A DNA stretch of 64,000 nucleotides from Octopus sinensis. Its lineage: Eukaryota. The notes below the pieces were generated by a model. It had not been told where the DNA came from and ran no database searches. It was given only the letters and a program-made list of their open reading frames with translations. Made by a program: the position numbers and the translations under genes. Shown in pieces: positions 7,174-37,200 of the stretch (its first letter is position 1; each line of letters opens with the position of its first letter). The DNA is taken from positions 99,200,001-99,264,000 of the forward strand of contig NC_042997.1 of NCBI RefSeq assembly GCF_006345805.1. Reading direction: 5' to 3'.

Positions 7174-7539
7174 ACACACACATAATATATATATCTATAA
7201 TATATATTATATATATATATATATATATATTATATGAACTTTCGCTCACAAACATACACTATACATATACATATTATTTCGTCACAGAAGCACACAGATA
7301 CATACACCACCTGGACAAGCACACATCAACTGCTACACACACGTTGGTTTCACAAATATACACACGTCCGTACGCACGCGCAAACAAACACTCGCTCACA
7401 CATACGTACTCATATACTCGCCCCTATTCACACATGTACACTCACACACACCACTCTCACATGCACTTGTGCACTTTAGTTCGTTGGGATCACCTTTATC
7501 GTTATTATTATTATTATCTCCCTTTAATTCAGTCTCTTT

Positions 7540-12600: not shown

Positions 12601-13370
12601 AATCCTTTCTACTACAGGCACAAGACCTGAAATTTGGGAGAAGGGAGTAGTCGATTACATCGACCTCAGTAGTCAACTGGTACTTAATTCATTGACCCCG
12701 AAAGGATGAAAGGCAAAGTCAAACTCGGCGGAATTTGTACTCCCAACGTAAAGACGGACGAAATGCCGCTAAGCATTTTGTCCGGCGTACTAACGATACA
12801 GGCAACTCACCGACTTATTAATAATGGTAATCTTTTCCACTAAAGGTACAATGCCTGAATTTTGTGAGGAGGAGATTTGTTGATTAAATTGTCCCCAGTG
12901 TTTCACTGGTACTTAATTTATCGACCCCGCAAGGATGAAAGGTGAAGTCAATCTCGGCAGAATTTGAACTCAGAATGTAGCGACGGGCGAAATACCTATT
13001 TCTTTACTACCCACAAGGGGCTAAACACAGAGAGGACAAACAAGGACAGACAAACGGATTATGTCGATTATATCGACCCCAGTGCATAACTGGTACTTAT
13101 TTAATTGACCCCGAAAGGATGAAAGGCAAAGTTGATCTCGGCAAAATTTGAACTCAGAATGTAAAGACAGAAGAGATACCTATTTCTATTTCTTTACTAC
13201 CCACAAGGAGCTAAACACAGAGAGGACAAACAAGGACAGACAAACGGATTAAGTCGATTATATCGACCCCAGTGCGTAACTGGTACATATTTAATCGATC
13301 CTGAAGGATGAAAGGTAAAGTCGACCTCGGCGGAATTTGAACTCAGAACGTAACGGCAGGTCGCCGCCTT
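12601..13370 (-). mobile_element. Cluster of four SINE family A units, partly as a concatemer
   Basis: Repeated gaccccgaaaggatgaaaggcaaagtcgacctcggcggaatttgaactcagaac; gaaatacc|tatttcttt-type junctions at ~12993 and ~13178. Confidence 0.9.
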
Positions 13371-14002: not shown

Positions 14003-14964
14003 GCGGCGAGTTGGCAGAAACGTTAGCACGCCGGGCGAAATGCGTAGCCGTATTTCGTCTACCGTTACGTTCTGAGTTCAAATTCCGCCGAGGTCGACTT
14101 TGTCTTTCATCCTTTCGGGGTGGATAAATTAAGTACCAGTTACGCACTGGGGTCGGTGTAATCGGCTTAATCCGTTTGTCTGTCATTGTTTGTCCTCTCT
14201 GTGTTTAGCCCCTTGTAGATAGTAAAGAAATAGGTATTTCGTCTGTCGTTACGTTGTGAGTTCAAATTCCGCCGAGGTTGACTTTGCCTTTCATCCTTTC
14301 GGGGTCGATAAATTAAGTACCAGTTACGCACTGAGGTCGATCTAATCGACTTAATCCGTTTGTTTGTCCTTGTTTGTCTGTGTTTAGCCCCTTGTGTGTA
14401 GTAAAGAAATAGGTATTTCGTCTGTCGTTACGTTCTGAGTTCAAATTCCGCCTAGGTCGACTTTGCCTTTCATCCTTTCGGGGTCGATAAATTAAGTACC
14501 AGTTACGCACTGGGGTCGGTGTAATCGACTTAATCCGTTTGTCTGTCATTGTTTGTCCTCTCTGTGTTTAGCCCCTTGTAGATAGTAAAGAAATAGGTAT
14601 TTCGTCTGCCGTTACGTTGTGAGTTCAAATTCCGCCGAGGTTGACTTTGCCTTTCATCCACTCGGGGGTCGATAAATTAAGTACCATTTACGCACTGAGG
14701 TCGATCTAATCGACTTAATCCGTTTGTCTGTCCTTGTTTGTCCTCTCTGTGTTTAGCCCCTTGTGGGTAGTAAAGAAATAGGTATTTCGTCTGTAGTTAC
14801 GTTCTGAGCTCAAATTCCGCCGAGGTTGACTTTGCCTTTCATCCTTTCGGGGTCGATAAATAAATTACCAGTTTCGCACTGGGGTCGATGTAATCGACTT
14901 AATCCCTTTGTCTATCCTTGTTTCTCCCCTCTATGTTTAACCCCTTGTGGGCAATAAAGAAATA
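14003..14964 (+). mobile_element. SINE family A concatemer: one head plus five tandem ~180-185-bp bodies, flanked by a ~20-bp TSD
   Basis: Bodies restart at gtatttcgtc near 14050, 14234, 14413, 14597 and 14782. B box GTTCAAAT. The core gactttgcctttcatcctttcggggtcgataaattaagtacc resembles the Deu/Nin domain (recalled). TSD atatatagttatacaaaaa(a)ga at 13981 and ~14964. Confidence 0.92.
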
Positions 14965-27749: not shown

Positions 27750-28490
27750 TAACGGATTTCAAGTAGAAGCAACGTTCTGTCATGTAGTTTTTAACAAAGG
27801 AGAGATGTAGGATAGCTGACCTACTCAGAAGGCTATCGATTTGTTTCAAAAAGTGGTACCATTAACAAGAGCAGTGCGCATAGATGGATGGAAACATTTT
27901 AAAAAGGGGAAAGAGTATTGACGGGATACTACACAAAAGGAGACCAATGACACGCAGCGAGTGGACGAATTGATTCGCGTGGGCAAATGAGTCACAATCC
28001 ATGAACTTCTTCCGCTATTACACCGAGGTCACAATGTATTACAGACCATGGTGGAAGACTTAGGACTTCGGAAAATGTGTGAAACGTGGGTATCTTGGCA
28101 GTTGATACCAGATGCAAAATAGAGAAGGCTGGAACTCTGCTCTGATCTACTTGAAGCGTTTGAAGACAAAAATTTTTGTTCCGATCTGGTTATACGACGT
28201 GGAATAAGGGCATATGTGCAGGATTCGGAAAGATCCATAGAAAAGCACCATACAACTTTTCTAAAGCCTCAGAAATTCAAGATCCACCGATTTTCAGAGA
28301 AAGTTTTCGTGACTGCTTTTTGTGATTACAAAGGCGTCATTCTCCTTCATTTTCTGAAAAGTGATTCAACTGTCAACAGCGAGCTGTAGAGGAGGACACT
28401 CAAAAAGCGTAAAGAAGACATTAAAAGAAAGAAGCAAAACAAGAATCGGAAATTGATCCGCGTTCACCGTGACAATGCGTGACAACACGC
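27750..28490 (+). mobile_element. Mariner transposase remnant
   Basis: KQRSVM.FL, GLRKMCETWVSWQL (WVPxxL motif), KVFVTAFCDYKGVILLHFLKSDSTVNS and HRDNA*QH (HDNARPH), with stops. Confidence 0.8.
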
Positions 28491-28590
28491 AGGCTATCAG
28501 TAAATTGAGCTGCCCAGTGATCACACACATACACATGCGCGCACGTGAACATAACAAAAACACGTACATATGTAAATATATATATATATA

Positions 28591-28622
<32 letters not shown>

Positions 28623-28793
28623 ATAAATATTAGGGAATAAATCCAAATTTACAGGGAAAAAATCAGATTTATGATTAAATCGATTTATAGTAAAATATTA
28701 TAAAATATTATTCGAGACAAAACCACTATTTTGCAAAACAAACAAGGAAAGACTATTAATACATAAAATTTTAATAAATAGTCAAAAAAACCG

Positions 28794-28836
28794 CCACTAC
28801 AATCGTTTCTTGTCTTGATCGACAATCTTCAGGTGG
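28794..28836 (-). ncRNA. Minimal type I hammerhead ribozyme motif
   Basis: Minus strand: CCAC-CTGAAGA-TTGTC-gatcaa-GACAA-GAAA-C-gatt-GTA-GTGG. Confidence 0.8.
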
Positions 28837-29289
28837 ACTTCCAATCTAAAAAATCAATATTTTAAAATATAAAAATAATAATTTTAAAATAATTAAAGTA
28901 TGAATGAAAAAATATAAGTATATAATCCATATATAACCTATCTATAATCCATATATAAACAATATATAAACAATATAAACTAAAAAAACCTATCAACAAT
29001 TAAATATAAAATATAAAATATAAAATATAAAATATAAAATATAAAACAAAACAAAAAAAATAATAATATAATAATAAACTATATATACACCCATACGCAT
29101 ATACCTAATTATATATAACCATATCTAACTACATACACTAAATCACACACCTATATATATATCCCTATACATACACATAAAAATGTCTAGGCAACTATAA
29201 ATAAATAAAATAGCTAAATACTTCAACACAATACTATTCATACTCCCACACACACACACATACAACCCACATTCACGCTCTAGAAAACG

Positions 29290-32200
29290 GACATCACTCA
29301 AAACTATGAACGGAGAAATGGAATAAATGGAATTAAAAATTATATACACTTGGTAAAAACAACACTACTTAAAAATTATGAATGAAACAATGCAATAAAA
29401 CAACAGACATCGCAATATACACAAATTACTACAAATTCCTTATCAAACCTACCATGATAACCAAAATTCATAAAAACATATAATGATAAAATCTCCCTTT
29501 ACTAAACTCTATAACAAACCTATATAGCAATCCCCCTAACCTAAACATTCACACACGTAAACCACACACCCACGACATATACAAATACCCACACCACTTA
29601 CACATACCAATACATACATATAAACCTCAACATATACTCCAAAAACCCACTCAACCCCACACAGACAAATAAACACAAAAATTATGAATGGATTCATTTA
29701 TAAAACTACCATGATAATCTAAAACTCACAAAACAGAAATGATAAAACCTCCCTTTACTAAACACTAAAACATACTTATATAGCAATTCTTTTAACCTAT
29801 ACATTCACACACCAACCCACTCGTAAACCACACACCCATAACAAATACAAACTCCCACCCCACTCACACACACCCACAAGTACATATAAGCCTCAACATA
29901 TACACCAAACAAAATTACTTTACCAAGGAACTTAACATATATATAAAAAGTATAACCGCTCTGGAAACGAACATCTCTAAATTAATGAATGGAGAAATGG
30001 AATAAATGGAATTAAAAATAAAATTCACGTGGCAAAACGAACACCACTCAAAAATTATGAATGAAACAATATAATAAAACAACCAACATCGAAAATAGAC
30101 AAATTACTACGAATTCCCTAAAAAAACCATGATAAACCAAAACTCTTAAAAAACATATAACGATAAAATCTCCCTTTGCTAAACTCTATAACAAACCTAT
30201 ATAGTAATCCCCCTAACCTAAACATTCACACACAAACACACACGTAAACCACATACCCACGACTTATACACATACGTAAACTAACTTATAAACCTCCATA
30301 TACACCAAAACCCACTCCCTCCCACACAGACAAATTAACTCATACATCCCAAAACCTAAATAACAAACCCATATACACATTCACACACAAACACACACAC
30401 ACGCAAAACACACAAACACAACATATACATATACTCCCTCACATATACGCATATACATACTCACTAAACTCAATATATACAACATATTTACACACCCACA
30501 CTCATACAGATAAATAAATTATACAACTAAAAACTCGCACACAATCTCATATACATAAACACTCCTATGAAAACAACATTAAATACATCGTAATTAACCA
30601 GAATATCAAAATAACAATATGACATAAAGGTAAATAAAATACATACTTACAATTCAGTGTCAAATTATGAAGTGAAATTAAATTCTTAGCCGTTAAAAAA
30701 TCAAACCAAAATTACGTTACCATAGAAATAACTTATGTAAAAAAAGACTAACAATCAACTTACAGTAACCCAAACCCATTCTCTATGCCTACCTCACTAC
30801 TACACTATTCCATTCACAATTCCAAACAACGCTAGTCCACCTCCCGGTTATTCACGTGGCAAAACGAACACCACTCAAAAATTATGAATGAAACAATGTA
30901 ATAAAACAACCAACATCGAAAATAGACAAATTACCACGAATTCCCTAAAAAAACCATGATAAACCAAAACTCCTAAAAACATATAACGATAAATCTCCCT
31001 TTGCTAAACTCTATAACAAACCTATATAGCAATCTCCCTAACCTAAACATTCACACACAAATACACACTCGTAAACCACAGACCCACTACTTATACACAT
31101 ACCTATACTAATTTATAAACCTCAATATACACCAAAACCCACTCCCTCCCACACAGACAAATTAACACATACATCCCAAACCTAAATAACAAACCCATAT
31201 ACACATTCACACACAAACACACACACACGCAAAACACACACACACAACAGATACATATACTCCCTCACATATACGCATATACATACTCACTAAACTCGAT
31301 ATATACAACAATATTTACACACCCACACTCATACAGATAAATAAATTATACAACTAAAAAACTCGCACACAATCTCATATACATAAACACACCTATGAAA
31401 ACAACATTAAATACATCGTAATTACCAGAATATCAAAATAACAATATGACATAAGGATAAATAAAATACATACTTACAATTCAGTGTCAAATTATGAAGT
31501 GAAATTAAATTCTTAGCCGTTAAAAAAATCAAAGCAAAATTACGTTACCATAGAAATAACTTATGTAAAAAAAGAATACGCGCCATGGAAAGTAAACGTC
31601 ATTTAAATTATGAATGGAGAAATAGGAAAATGGAACTAAAAACTATATCCACGTGGCAAACCAACACTACTTAAAAAAACTTTTATTATGAATGGATTCT
31701 TTAAAAAACTACCATTAAAAATCATTATATACATCTATGAACTTTAGCTCACCTTAGCATCTCTAACAAACAACTTGCAGTAACCCAAACCCATTCTCTA
31801 TGCCTACCTCACTACTACACTATTCCATTCACAATTCCAAGCAACGCTAGTCCACCACCCGGTTATTCACGTGGCAAAACTAACACCACTCAAAAATTAT
31901 GAATGAAATAATGTAATAAAACAACCAACATCGAAAATAGACAAATTACCACGAATTCCCTAAAATAACCATGATAAACCAAAACTCATAAAAACATATA
32001 ACGATAAAATCTCCCTTTGCTAAACTCTATAACAAACCTATATAGTAATCCCCCTAAACATTCACACACAAATACACACTCGTAAACCACAATCCACGAC
32101 TTATACACATACCTATCCTAATTTATAAACCTCAATATACACCAAAACCCACTCCCTCCCACACAGACAAATTAACACATACATCCCAAACCTAAATAAC

Positions 32201-32875
32201 AACCCATATACACATTCACACACAAACACACACACACACAAAAAACACACACACACACAGATACATATACTCCCTCACATATACTCATATATATACTCAC
32301 TAAACTCGATATATACAACAATATTTACACACCCACACTCATACAGATAAATAAAATATACAACTAAAAACTCACACACAATCTCATATACATAAAACTC
32401 CTATGAAAACAACATTAAATACATCGTAATTAACCAGAATATCAAAATAACAATATGACATAAGGATAAATAAAATACATACTACAAGTCAATTTCAAAT
32501 AATGAAGTGAAATTAAATTCTTAGCCGTTAAAAAAACCAAACCAAAATTACGTTACCATAGAAATAACTTATGTAAAAAAAAGAGAGAATACACGCCATA
32601 GAAATTAAACGTCATTTAAATTATGAATGGAGAAATAGAATAAATGGAACTAAAACTATATCCACGTAGCAAACCAACTCTACGTAAAAAAATTTATAAT
32701 GAATGGATTCTTTAAAAAACTACCATGAAAAACCATTATATACATTTATGAGCTTAACTCACCCTATCAGCTCTAACAAACAACCTACAGCAACCCAAAC
32801 CTATTCCCGATACCTACCTCACTACCACACTAATCAATTCCCAATTCCAAGCAACGCTAGTCCACCACCCGGTTA
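29290..32875. repeat. Four tandem C/A-rich, G-poor units of ~0.7-1.0 kb
   Basis: cacgtggcaaaac(g/t)aacaccactcaaaaattatgaatgaaa at ~30026, 30853 and 31868, with a diverged copy at ~29347. atgaatggagaaat..aaatggaa at ~29305, 29984, 31610 and 32623. Confidence 0.9.
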
Positions 32876-32984
32876 CAATTCCCAACTCCACCCATTAATT
32901 CACAATTTCAACGACATTCGCCTCCACAACGCTACATATAAGCCTCAACATATACACCGGAGATACACTTACACATCCATGCGG

Positions 32985-33480
32985 ATGGGTGAGAGTATAC
33001 ATTGAGTGTAATGATGGGGCTCTCATTACTATACACATTTGTACCTATGTGGTAGTCTCCATGTGTATATTACGCACGGGTATAAATAACTGCAGGGGGT
33101 ACACGCGCACGTCGTTTACGTGTACCCCTCACATGTACATATGCATGCTATTTGGGCTCGATATATGCAACAATGTAATCGCGCCCGCATACATGCATAT
33201 GGGCGAATTGCACAATCAAAAAACGCACACGTGTGTGTGTGCGTTCCCTAGTTGTGCAATTCACCCATCTGGGTGTGAGTGGGTGTAATCTTATCACTAT
33301 GGATGTCAAGCTTAATACGTATTTATATAAGTATGTATTAGGGGGTTGTACGTATTAATTGTGTACATGTGCTTCACGCACTTACGTCCATATATGGATG
33401 AATATATTGGGATTACTATGTGGGTGTAAATTGGGTATGGAGGGGGGAATTTTGTCATTGTATGGGTGTGGGTTTCATTT
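32985..33480 (+). other. ~500-nt imperfect hairpin centred at ~33234, rich in G.U pairs on the + strand
   Basis: atgggcgaattgcacaa pairs with ttgtgcaattcacccat. 33039-33066 pairs with 33402-33429 (17 Watson-Crick, 10 G.U, 1 mismatch, counted by hand). Confidence 0.8.
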
Positions 33481-33819
33481 ATGATAGTGGTTAGTTGGTG
33501 ATTTTTAGTATGTTCTATATATTTGGGTTAGTTATGTATTATTCTAAAGTGTATAATTGTATACATATAGTTTGTGTGAATGGGATTACGCCCATTTTTG
33601 GGGATGTATGTGTTTATTTATCCATGTGGGGCGGGAGTGGCCGTTAGGTGTATATGCCGAGGCTCACATGCAATTCCAGGTATTGTTTATATATTGTTTA
33701 TATATGGATTATAGATAGGTTATATATGGATTATATACTTATATTTTTTCATTCATACTTTAATTATTTTAAAATTATTATTTTTATATTTTAAAATATT
33801 GATTTTTTAGATTGGAAGT

Positions 33820-33862
33820 CCACCTGAAGATTGTCGATCAAGACAAGAAACGATTGTAGTGG
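33820..33862 (+). ncRNA. Minimal type I hammerhead ribozyme motif
   Basis: Stem I CCAC/GTGG; CTGAAGA 33824-33830; stem II TTGTC/GACAA; GAAA 33847-33850; stem III AC-gatt-GT; predicted cleavage after A33858. Confidence 0.8.
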
Positions 33863-34369
33863 CGGTTTTTTTGACTATTTATTAAAATTTTATGTATTAA
33901 TTAGTCTTTCCTTGTTTGTTTTGCAAAATAGTGGTTTTGTCTCGAATAATATTTTATATATATATATATATATATATTATATATTATATATTATATATTA
34001 CATATTATATATTATATATATGAGATGTCTTGGGATCCAGAACCCAAAATGCAGGAAAGGTTATGTAATTGCTACGGAAGGACCGTTGTTAAACTCTCGG
34101 TTCAATAATAGCATGAGTGAGGAATCTAAGACAGGTAGTGTGTGAGCGTGTATATGTTAGATAAAGTAACATAACAAGGCCAAGGCAATTTGATATTCCT
34201 ATGACATTTATAAATAGAAAGGTGGTCTTACAGTTTTTTTCAGGAAAAAAATGATATCCCATCATCAGAGACGAGTTAACAGAGCTTCAGTAGAAAGAAT
34301 TAGTAGAGTTCGTTTCTTTTCAGAGTTATTCTGGAGAGGGAGAGATATACACGTATCCGGACGATATAA

Positions 34370-35257
34370 TATTTCTGAATATTTTAAAACAGGAAACATT
34401 CGCTATACACTAAGTAAGTAAGTGTTTTCGACTTTTCGACATCCACAGTACAGTAGTATTCGATATAACAACAGACTATCATCCGTGCTAAAAAGAAAGG
34501 AAAAGGAAAAAAATGGCTTACTCATTACTTGAATTGGGGGTGGTAACTGCGTAAGAATAAATGGCAGTGTGAAATCATAGGGTTTCAGTTTAAGTCTTGG
34601 CAGAATGACCTATAATGATTACTTTCTGTAGCAATGCTGCTTTCAGTCGTGTTTATATAACTAGAATATTCGAATTCTTATTCCATTAGAAAACGCATTA
34701 GCCTTATTTAAATTTTCTAATAGGATTACAACAATCCGTTTTGCGAGATTAAATTATAGGGAAACTCCATCAAAATTACAGGTGCTGCTTACAAACTCGT
34801 TTGGATAATTGTACATATTGTCTTCATCATTGCAGTGGTTGTTTCTCCATCAAATGTGTTGAAAATTTTCTCATTTGTAAAATCAACATCATTGGCTGGG
34901 GACAGTATTGCACTCAAGGAACTAGTAAGCTAGCCGAAACTTGCGTTATCATTCAACATTTATTCGATAAAATTTCAAAATCATCTAGAAGGTTAATCTT
35001 GCCATCCTATTGTTTGTTCAACATGTGAATTAAAAATCAGTATTTTTTTATGAAATCTCATAATCTTGAAAAGTATCAATTTCGTCAATTTCTTACAAAT
35101 AAAAAAAGACTGTTCGTGATAGAACTTTGTGAATTGTCTTTATGGGAGCAAGTGTTAGTCGAAAATCGCCTAGAAAGAGTATGAGCTTGCCGCAGAAAGA
35201 TATCCTTTTGAAAAACTATCGAAATTTGAGATGGAAAGCTTCCTTTACATACCTAGA
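34370..35257 (-). pseudogene. Helitron PIF1-family helicase remnant, C-terminal part
   Basis: FCGKLILFLGDFRLTLAPI (cf. FGGK..L.GDFRQ.LPV), VILLENLNKANAFSNGIRI (cf. LLRNL...GLCNGTRL) and VILPRLKLKPYDFTLPF. Confidence 0.75.
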
Positions 35258-35259
35258 TA

Positions 35260-36693
35260 CAATGTGGTATCAAACGGTTCCCGGAGTAGTTATGTTTAAC
35301 AAACAAATAACTTATTTATCTAAGTTTTAACATCATCCCCTTCGAAGTAGTCTTCTTGCGCAGCAATACACCGGTTCCAGCGATCCAGCCACTTTTGGAA
35401 TCCGGCCTGAAAGTCGTTTACTGTAAGTGAGTCGAGTATCTTCTGCGATTTTCTCTGGATCTCGACAACGATGTTAAAACGGCGATCTTTGAGCTGCATT
35501 TTTACATTGGGGAAGAGGTGCTAATCTGTAGGTGTTAAATCTGGCAAATGGGATGGGTGCCGAAGCAAAACCATGCTGTTTTTGGTGTGAAACTCACGAT
35601 TGAGGAGAGCTCGTGAAGAATTCAATTCTTCGCAAACCATAGATCCGGTCGCTTTCGCCGAATGTCCTCCCTCAAAGCTTCCAAATATCGTGATAGAAAT
35701 CTCGATTGACGGTTTGACCCTTGGAAAAGAATTCTCGATGCACAATACAGCGTATGTCGAAAAATCAATGAGGATGCTCTTGATTGAACTGCGGTCGTGA
35801 AGATGAAGGGTTCTTCCATTGTGACAGCTACTGCTTCGTCTCAGGGTCTTACCCGTAGACCCAACTCGCGTCACCGGTAATGATCCTCGATAGATTTCGA
35901 CGCGATATTCCTTCTGTTCAGAGGAACAAACTTCGTAGATACACGCCACTTGTTCAATTCAGACGTTACGATTGCCTACATGGACACATACGGCTGACCA
36001 ACAACGGTTCTCATGCACAAGCTGATGAATTTTCTCCACATTTGCGGGGGTAACGCTCGTGGCAGGTCTTACAGATCGCTCATCGTCTTTGAGGAACTTT
36101 CTCCTGCTCTTGAAGCGCCAGTACCCCTCGAAACATTGTTGTTTTTTGGCGAAAAACTCACGAGTGAGAAGAGCTCAGCAACAGGATGTATTTTCATCGT
36201 GAAGAATCCAATTCCTCACGCTCCACAGATCCCGTTGTCTTTCACCGAATGTCCTCCCTTAAAACGCTTCAAGACGTCGCAGAAGAACTCTCGATCGACG
36301 GTCTGGTTCTGGGAGAAGAATTCTCAATGCACAATACCACATTTTCAGGGATCACGTTCGTGGCAGGTCTTTCAGATCACTCATCTTCTTCCAATGACGT
36401 TCTTTCGCTTTTGAAGTGCCCGTGCCACTCGTAACATTGCGTTCGACCTATTGCCTAGTCGCCGTAAACTTGCCAAAGCATGCTGAATGTCTCTGTTTTA
36501 CACGCTGGCTCTTTGTTCTGTCTATGACAAAAATCGCAGACTACAGCATACACGTGATCGCAAAAACACAAATTTCACAACCTGCGATGTAAACACAGCG
36601 GTGTCACTCGGCGCACTGCCTCATGAAAATCACTGTGCTGCCACCTGTTGGCGCACTATAGAACTAGTCCGGGAACTTTTTGATGCAACCGCG
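35260..36693 (-). mobile_element. Mariner DNA transposon, decayed, with TIRs and TA duplication
   Basis: TIRs atcaaacggttcccggagtagtt / aactagtccgggaactttttgat; TA at 35258-59 and 36694-95. LREDIRRKRPDLW, HPSHLPDLTPTD (YSPDL motif) and WLDRWNRCIAAQEDYFEGD. Internal duplication 36140-36340 vs 35580-35750. Confidence 0.9.
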
Positions 36694-36695
36694 TA

Positions 36696-37200
36696 TTTAC
36701 AGTGTTCCATTCCAACGGTTGAAACCACTGTCTGTTTTTTTTTGTTTTTTTTTACTGTTTTCATTGGGCTTTTTCCTTTGCGTTGACAAACAATATTACA
36801 AACAGGATAGAAGTCAACGGAAACTGAAATATGGAATGTTGAAGGAATCGTAGAATCTCTTTCTTTAATAGAACAATGCGGCCATTCCTAAAGGTGCAAC
36901 AGCGGCATCTGGTTGATTAAAATATGCTTCCACGTATTCAATATGTGTTCCATTGAAATATGTGCTTCTGAATGCAGTACGACCATTAACAAAGGAAATA
37001 TTTTGACTTAGGTTATAGCTTTACATGGCATTCATAATAGTATCCAAAACATGTTGATCTTGCTTTAACGTTCCTTTCCGATGGTTCGATTCAGTTCTTT
37101 AAGGTTATAGTTGGCAATATCTGAAGGTGATTGAAAAGAAATAGATATGGTACAGACAACCTAATTAAGGAATTGATGAAGGGAAGTTCCATTTCGGATA
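36696..37200 (-). pseudogene. Helitron PIF1-family helicase remnant, N-terminal part
   Basis: QHVLDTIMNA, FVNGRTAFRSTY (decayed Walker A, cf. FVDGPGGTGKTY) and AVAPLGMAAL..SFNIP (cf. AVASSGIAA.LL..GRT.HS.FKIP). Confidence 0.7.

Follow-up and report, generated by a model that had tools for sequence, protein, structure and literature searches.

The window, a 64,000-nucleotide stretch of the Octopus sinensis genome, contains a long hairpin that is rich in G.U pairs and carries clustered A-to-G differences from the repeat units beside it. How did such a pattern come to stand in DNA? The original prediction was that ADAR editing of a non-coding, RNA-replicated element had been fixed, from both polarities, through reverse transcription. 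The hairpin has the following parts, in which changes are assigned to a first episode of substitution or to a later one that followed inversion ("flip") of the hairpin block:

32938..33232, plus strand: left arm, an inverted duplicate of an ancestral unit, with first-episode A>G.
33231..33236, no strand assigned: loop, from fold and repeat analysis.
33237..33682, plus strand: right arm and its extension (X), with first-episode plus-strand A>G and post-flip plus-strand T>C (sense A>G).

Recounting the stem formed by 33039-33066 and 33402-33429 gave the reported 17 Watson-Crick pairs, 10 G.U pairs, 1 mismatch and no A.C pair, and the centre at 33231-33236 agrees with the predicted ~33234. Plus-strand A>G changes in the right arm, and T>C changes near 33245-33265 and 33640-33670, are present as described. 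Also as predicted, the left arm shares homology with the tandem units of the element; A>G is the chief difference from the three closest units (43-49 changes), with C>T at 21-23, T>C at 5-6 and G>A at 0-2. Plus-strand specificity of the fold, likewise claimed, held for the outer stem and failed for the hairpin as a whole: folding of 32950-33520 against shuffled sequences gave z-scores of -6.68 for the plus strand and -6.61 for the minus strand, and the 218 aligned columns of the arms comprise 124 Watson-Crick pairs, 49 G.U pairs on the plus strand, 24 G.U pairs on the minus strand and 21 other columns. The plus-strand G.U fold in the window is a decaying relic. We found no assembly error; all 40 scored genome matches cover the stretch at 94-100%, and contigs of four public runs (assembled, none recorded as RNA) lie on the stretch and carry the subfamily alleles. 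These 40 matches were scored from 576 first-look candidates, a number that is not a copy number.

We next considered what kind of element carries the hairpin. Its features in the window are:

28573..33682, minus strand: 5'-truncated copy of a Penelope-like retrotransposon, as it reads from sequence; 3' part, 5.1 kb, non-coding.
28568..28630, no strand assigned: (TA)n flank, repeat reading.
33955..34021, no strand assigned: (TA)n flank, repeat reading.
28794..28836, minus strand: putative hammerhead ribozyme motif, with a CUGANGA ... GAAAC core read from the sequence.
28980..32570, minus strand: tandem units of ~0.4-1 kb, G/U-rich on the RNA strand.
33681..33958, plus strand: inverted copy of the element 3' end, 278 bp, matching 28699-28975 at 100%.

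Rather than belonging to a non-coding element, the hairpin lies in the 3' non-coding region of an ORF-bearing one. Fuller copies continue beyond the equivalent of 33682 into an ORF with reverse transcriptase (RT) and GIY-YIG parts on the same, minus strand. When six copies were extended to 30 kb, the stretch ran into this minus-strand ORF, and in five of the six, further copies of the 3' region, inverted or in tandem, came after the ORF. About 7.7 kb is common to full copies, with the repetitive 3' region accounting for 5 kb. The ORF translation, read by eye, has RT-like motifs and C-terminal GIY-YIG-like motifs, DKT in place of DKG, a CxCX5C linker, endonuclease CxxC and CxH motifs, and KWK at the position corresponding to RWK; a Pfam search with three pieces of the ORF returned no informative family. 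The Hydra clade of Penelope-like elements is marked, in the cited part of Craig et al. 2021 (PMC8557442), by a C-terminal GIY-YIG-type domain, to which the motifs read by eye would correspond, by the same DKT, CxCX5C linker, CxxC and CxH, and by the same hammerhead motif, (TA)n insertion and partial tandem and inverted pLTR structure. It differs from the window family in having RWK rather than KWK and in being generally <3 kb, a size that is typical rather than defining, as against 7.7-8 kb with a 5-kb repetitive 3' region; editing is not among the features described there. We therefore read the window element as a Penelope-like retrotransposon with Hydra-type motifs. The 278-bp inverted ends had also been considered as those of a foldback element or DNA transposon, a reading that was dropped given the ORF, the hammerhead motif and the variable inverted parts.

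The hammerhead motif at 28794-28836 lies on the ORF strand, with a 5-bp helix II, a 4-bp helix I and a 2-bp helix III, and its architecture is as described in the part of PMC4209133 cited here. A second motif occurs at 33820-33862, within the inverted copy at 33681-33958, and related loci also carry the motif on the ORF strand. Rfam reported no family at threshold over 28000-34500, hammerhead included, and minimum-energy folds of the isolated region gave no hammerhead shape. The length of helix II differs among L102, L113, L099 and L136: in L102 it has changed on both sides, and L099 and L136 carry a long extension. Because the ORF and the hammerhead motif are on that strand, we take the RNA strand of the element to be the minus strand of the window, which would make the reported G.U fold antisense. 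The plus-strand composition of the tandem units is A 0.47, C 0.25, G 0.06 and T 0.22. Elsewhere in the window, tandem arrays with a 184-190-base unit lie in opposite orientations at 12882-13353 and 14050-14964, and diverged direct and inverted repeats with transposase-like-looking sequence lie right of the element at 35254-36699.

Relatives were collected from the 3' regions behind 40 ORF matches and from five further searches. They form subfamilies with nearly the same ORF: A, which includes the window copy, B, C, F (nine copies, L290-L298), E (three copies only) and the older O. Subfamily O has no hairpin, and one O unit is the source of both hairpin arms. Subfamily E carries the whole ~1-kb hairpin block in the opposite orientation. 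A tree built from 1.3 kb outside the hairpins (26 rows, after 5 of 31 candidates were dropped as short or without cover) placed O at the base with 100/100 support and C, B and A nested above E/F; E and the early flipped copies (F) were not separated.

Several loci stood apart within this collection. Copies of subfamily B (L104, L118, L122 and L124) have a 44-base deletion at the hairpin centre that removes the inner left arm; this centre-deleted subfamily is young and abundant, with at least 40 copies at 98-100%. L130, which has a plain unit instead of the left arm, was considered as an ancestral subfamily and rejected as a single insertion; at 7500-7530 of this locus (G000:C4:140.97 Mb) the inner left arm and a tandem unit meet at positions that are homologous, likely by template switching, and the junction is present in both halves of the insertion. 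L313 (G000:C3:146.58 Mb) is truncated, lies near E and has differences of its own in both arms; it possibly represents a sister state from the first episode. G.U-biased palindromes in the distant subfamilies of L101 and L107 proved to be microsatellite artefacts. Eight distant loci (L099, L100, L101, L112, L135, L136, L097 and L109) have a TG-rich, microsatellite-like sense stretch in the first 1 kb behind the ORF, with a skew of -0.7 to -0.9 on the other strand; editing of (UA)n repeat RNA into (UG)n could account for these stretches.

To polarise the substitutions in the arms, we compared E with the majority of 13 O copies, on the sense strand of E and over alignment columns 172-412 and 140-412, which were picked by eye and omit the distal left arm. 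In the left arm of E, A>G had occurred at 57/98 sites, T>C at 0/50, C>T at 7/61 and G>A at 0/8; in the right arm the counts were 29/57, 0/112, 0/10 and 1/67, respectively. For both arms together, sense A>G at 86/155 sites compares with 4/255 in unpaired non-coding controls (p = 8e-40) and with C>T at 7/71 (p = 1e-11). On the same branch, A>G was seen at 0/420 sites in the ORF and at 3/113, 0/35 and 1/107 in the three unpaired non-coding stretches; a fifth stretch, the right-arm extension (8/32), was excluded as a control on account of its resemblance to the distal left arm. On long perfect duplexes, ADAR edits roughly half of the A residues, a level like that seen here. E folds on the sense strand as one rod of ~290 bp (z = -20.3, versus -3.9 for the other strand; 20 shuffles each), and its arms have 85 G.U pairs and no A.C pair among 220 columns. 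C has most of these changes as well (47/87 and 25/53), which places them before the flip. The left arm at 32938..33232 was thus substituted A>G while the plus strand was the RNA strand. Polarised by the outgroup, the window left arm has A>G at 41/98 sites and C>T at 9/59. When the window's own tandem units had been used as the reference, C>T seemed as strong as A>G, and this reference was rejected once the true outgroup was found.

The same comparison bears on whether G could be the ancestral state, lost from the tandem units by G>A decay, as the original prediction had allowed, and on whether the pattern could be an assembly artefact. The units are extremely G-poor, and the direction of change is unreadable from the window alone. 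However, the basal subfamily O, in the 13 copies used, has A rather than G at these sites, which refutes ancestral G, and segment S1 (below) is unedited in both E and O; the alleles, moreover, are found again in tens of copies and in the contigs from other runs. Either explanation can be given next to no weight.

We then examined the sequence to the left of the reported hairpin, where the following features lie or have copies:

32745..32937, minus strand: segment S1, a piece of an A-rich unit, inverted by the flip and then subject to sense A>G.
32588..32744, minus strand: partner arm of a second hairpin, a direct unit segment adjoining the flipped block.
30735..30860, minus strand: duplicate of edited S1 in a tandem unit, with the same A>G pattern.
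31700..31875, minus strand: second duplicate in a tandem unit, of edited S1 with flank.

The direction of the flip is given by S1, which in E is oriented as in O and free of edits; every flipped copy has it both inverted and edited. S1 and its direct homologue form the second hairpin, which folds on the minus strand only (z = -3.2 versus -0.5). This hairpin, at 32570-32950 on the minus strand and directly left of the reported one, is younger and holds a cleaner ADAR-type record. Among the nine early flipped copies, at nine loci, 385 of the 392 differences from E in S1 are sense A>G, with 31-53 of about 102 A residues changed per copy; summed over cells, A>G stands at 385/915, C>T at 3/207 and T>C at 0/445. 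S1 of the window copy has A>G at 55/97 A sites. The edit count then climbs: C-like copies have 44-48, and four of five A copies, among them the window copy, have 55. The right arm gains up to about 32/200 A>G across flipped lines. In the partner arm, sense A>G affects 4-7 of 21-27 sites in flipped copies and 0 of about 50 in E; set against the sequence just beyond it, the arm has 4-6 of 26-27 in flipped copies, versus 0-1 of 38-59. The second hairpin is thus lopsided, with about 45% editing in S1 and about 18% in the partner. Duplication later placed copies of the edited S1 within the tandem units of the window (30735..30860 and 31700..31875).

The edits in S1 are partly nested. Ninety-eight S1 sites could be scored in every one of the nine copies; 19 of these carry the edit throughout and 25 in no copy. 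All 29 edits of one copy fall within those of four others, which have 33-46 edits, and another four are missing part of this set; the four-gamete test is failed by 333 of 595 site pairs. The pattern is one of editing that accumulated over successive rounds and struck hot sites repeatedly, or of edited lines recombining with one another. The early flipped copies are ancestral to the window copy. Both polarities of change were correctly recognised by the original prediction; in place of editing of two complementary RNAs, they come from an inversion of the hairpin block between two episodes. The two polarities are, as judged from these alignments, the product of editing, flipping and editing again on one RNA strand.

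Structural selection, in which mutation is ordinary and a functional hairpin retains only those changes that form G.U pairs, had been offered with the original prediction as an alternative. The E arms fit it in that their differences are nearly all sense G.U and their rod has stayed whole. Filtering does not make changes arise faster, however, and 30-50% of A sites changed on branches with <0.02 changes per site outside the hairpins. C>U would also create G.U pairs, yet in S1 it is almost absent beside A>G; private C>T/G>A changes, by comparison, are several times commoner per site than A>G/T>C. The sparing of A residues preceded by G (below) is left unexplained, and the hairpin was flipped, lost its centre in subfamily B and decayed while amplification went on. 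Dense A>G without C>T in nine independent early copies largely refutes structural selection, which we consider very unlikely.

Neighbouring bases were used to compare the changes with the known preferences of ADAR. None of 8 S1 sites with a 5' G was hit, versus 76/94 others (p = 7e-6), and 0/11 such sites were hit in X. Pooled over both episodes, edit rates were 0.64 after U, 0.59 after A, 0.34 after C and 0.21 after G (p = 2e-5). Depletion of upstream G is a hyper-editing motif across animals, and in octopus the 3' G preference is weak or reduced, according to the cited part of PMC5625713. Consistent with the first of these, the predicted 5' G depletion was found; the predicted 3' G enrichment was not significant (7/10 versus 121/232, p = 0.34). 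ADAR is also expected, from the cited part of PMC3091650, to prefer A.C mismatches, and this preference was not significant either (12/45 versus 4/35, p = 0.16). ADAR-family deaminase domains are present in this genome.

In both episodes, the substitutions are dense, near-pure A>G on one strand, the RNA strand; they are confined to double-stranded regions and affect both arms. Together with an outgroup that carries A, a one-sided spectrum and avoidance of 5' G, this bears out the central proposal that ADAR-type A>G was fixed by reverse transcription. We conclude that the one-stranded A>G changes are very probably ADAR edits of element RNA, reverse-transcribed into the genome in at least two episodes with an inversion between them; we infer the identity of the enzyme from the signature. 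Another deaminase, or context-dependent RT error on folded single-stranded sense RNA or DNA, would dispense with ADAR, with sense DNA exposed during second-strand synthesis as a possible substrate. The Hydra-type RT is uncharacterised in the cited part of PMC8557442, and the sense bias of the C>T changes that came later in subfamilies A and B suggests that an additional process may act on one strand. Against this, confinement to duplexes, the involvement of both arms on one strand, near-pure A>G and avoidance of 5' G together match ADAR, and deamination of the cDNA strand would give sense T>C or G>A, which are absent from the E arms and S1. We regard such a process as an unlikely source of the A>G changes.

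With ADAR as the presumed enzyme, the history of the element can be laid out as follows. An inverted duplication, evident from comparison of the subfamilies, gave a ~290-bp hairpin in the RNA strand, in both arms of which about half of the A residues are seen to have become G, presumably by ADAR. The ~1-kb hairpin block was then flipped, in a direction judged from the outgroup state, which moved the G.U fold to the antisense strand and created new duplexes. The newly inverted segments then changed again on the sense strand, as is visible in the flipped copies, cumulatively over several cycles of copying and again presumably by ADAR. Edited lines continued to amplify (C, B and A), with the edited segment duplicated into tandem units, and the fold is now being eroded by ordinary C>T and transversion drift. 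In this scheme ADAR would act where a fresh inversion gives a near-perfect duplex, and the RT of the element would read inosine as G. Edited copies would remain active because the ORF lies outside the duplexes. Judging from the extended copies, the likely origin of the inversions is the way the element itself inserts, in tandem and inverted form, and inheritance of the changes points to editing in the germline or early embryo. More tentatively, it is possible that a ratchet of inversion, editing and duplication, with ADAR as a recurring author and a fresh duplex at each inversion, built the whole 5-kb G/U-rich tail, and that it is the edited, less perfectly paired variants that amplify.

We also looked for fresh editing. 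Private changes in the cassette, counted in the 30 best-scoring loci each of A and C, showed no A>G excess, with 5 A>G in A and 4 in C and T>C likewise 5 and 4; a count from best-scoring loci favours unedited copies. A scan of 256 loci for individually hyper-edited copies flagged one window, which vanished against a nearer reference, and best-hit retrieval works against seeing fresh editing here too. Among private changes, C>T and G>A have similar rates, each exceeding that of A>G several-fold. A later increase in sense C>T, to 16/64 in X on the window's branch, goes along with one in transversions, and because the private C>T and G>A rates are alike, much of the late C>T is background drift. 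Shared variants of subfamily A lean towards sense C>T (15 C>T versus 2 G>A in the right arm) and private ones are symmetric. ADAR is no explanation for the build-up of sense C>T in A and B, and a second strand-specific process behind the shared C>T in A is possible.

Related phenomena are known from other systems, here compared on the cited portions of each source. ADAR-linked A>G hypermutation of retroviruses (RAV-1, avian leukosis virus and HTLV-2/STLV-3; PMC8586724) likewise records clustered RNA-genome A>G in DNA; the present case differs in that the element is endogenous and non-viral, that the edits were inherited, amplified and accumulated, and that an inversion acts as a control. Vertebrate LTR retrotransposons "DNA-edited" by APOBEC (PMC4866542, PMC2873906) show the same kind of strand-biased deaminase clusters fixed in genomic copies, but as sense G>A arising on cDNA of LTR elements, whereas here sense A>G is confined to RNA duplexes; those sources describe APOBEC-type DNA editing as absent from 19 invertebrate genomes. 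Transcriptome hyper-editing of repeat dsRNA, including octopus and lizard Penelope (PMC5625713), shows the same dense A>G in inverted repeats with upstream G depleted, but in RNA only; in the window family the changes stand in DNA. A literature search at the level of listings and abstracts, with most subscription papers outside its reach, turned up no publication that describes fixed ADAR edits in Penelope-like elements or in any other non-LTR family. New here are edits that became fixed while the line went on replicating, an inversion that settles on which strand and in what order the events took place, and intermediate copies in which the process can be followed.

Taken together, these observations would make RNA editing a heritable, cumulative mutagen acting on an active invertebrate retrotransposon family, beyond the scarring of dead copies. 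The flipped block serves as an internal natural control that fixes the strand and the order of events, and the intermediate copies would provide a per-site record of germline ADAR preference. Near inverted repeats, divergence-based repeat ages and trees would be distorted, since 45% of A sites have changed on a branch that otherwise shows <2% change.
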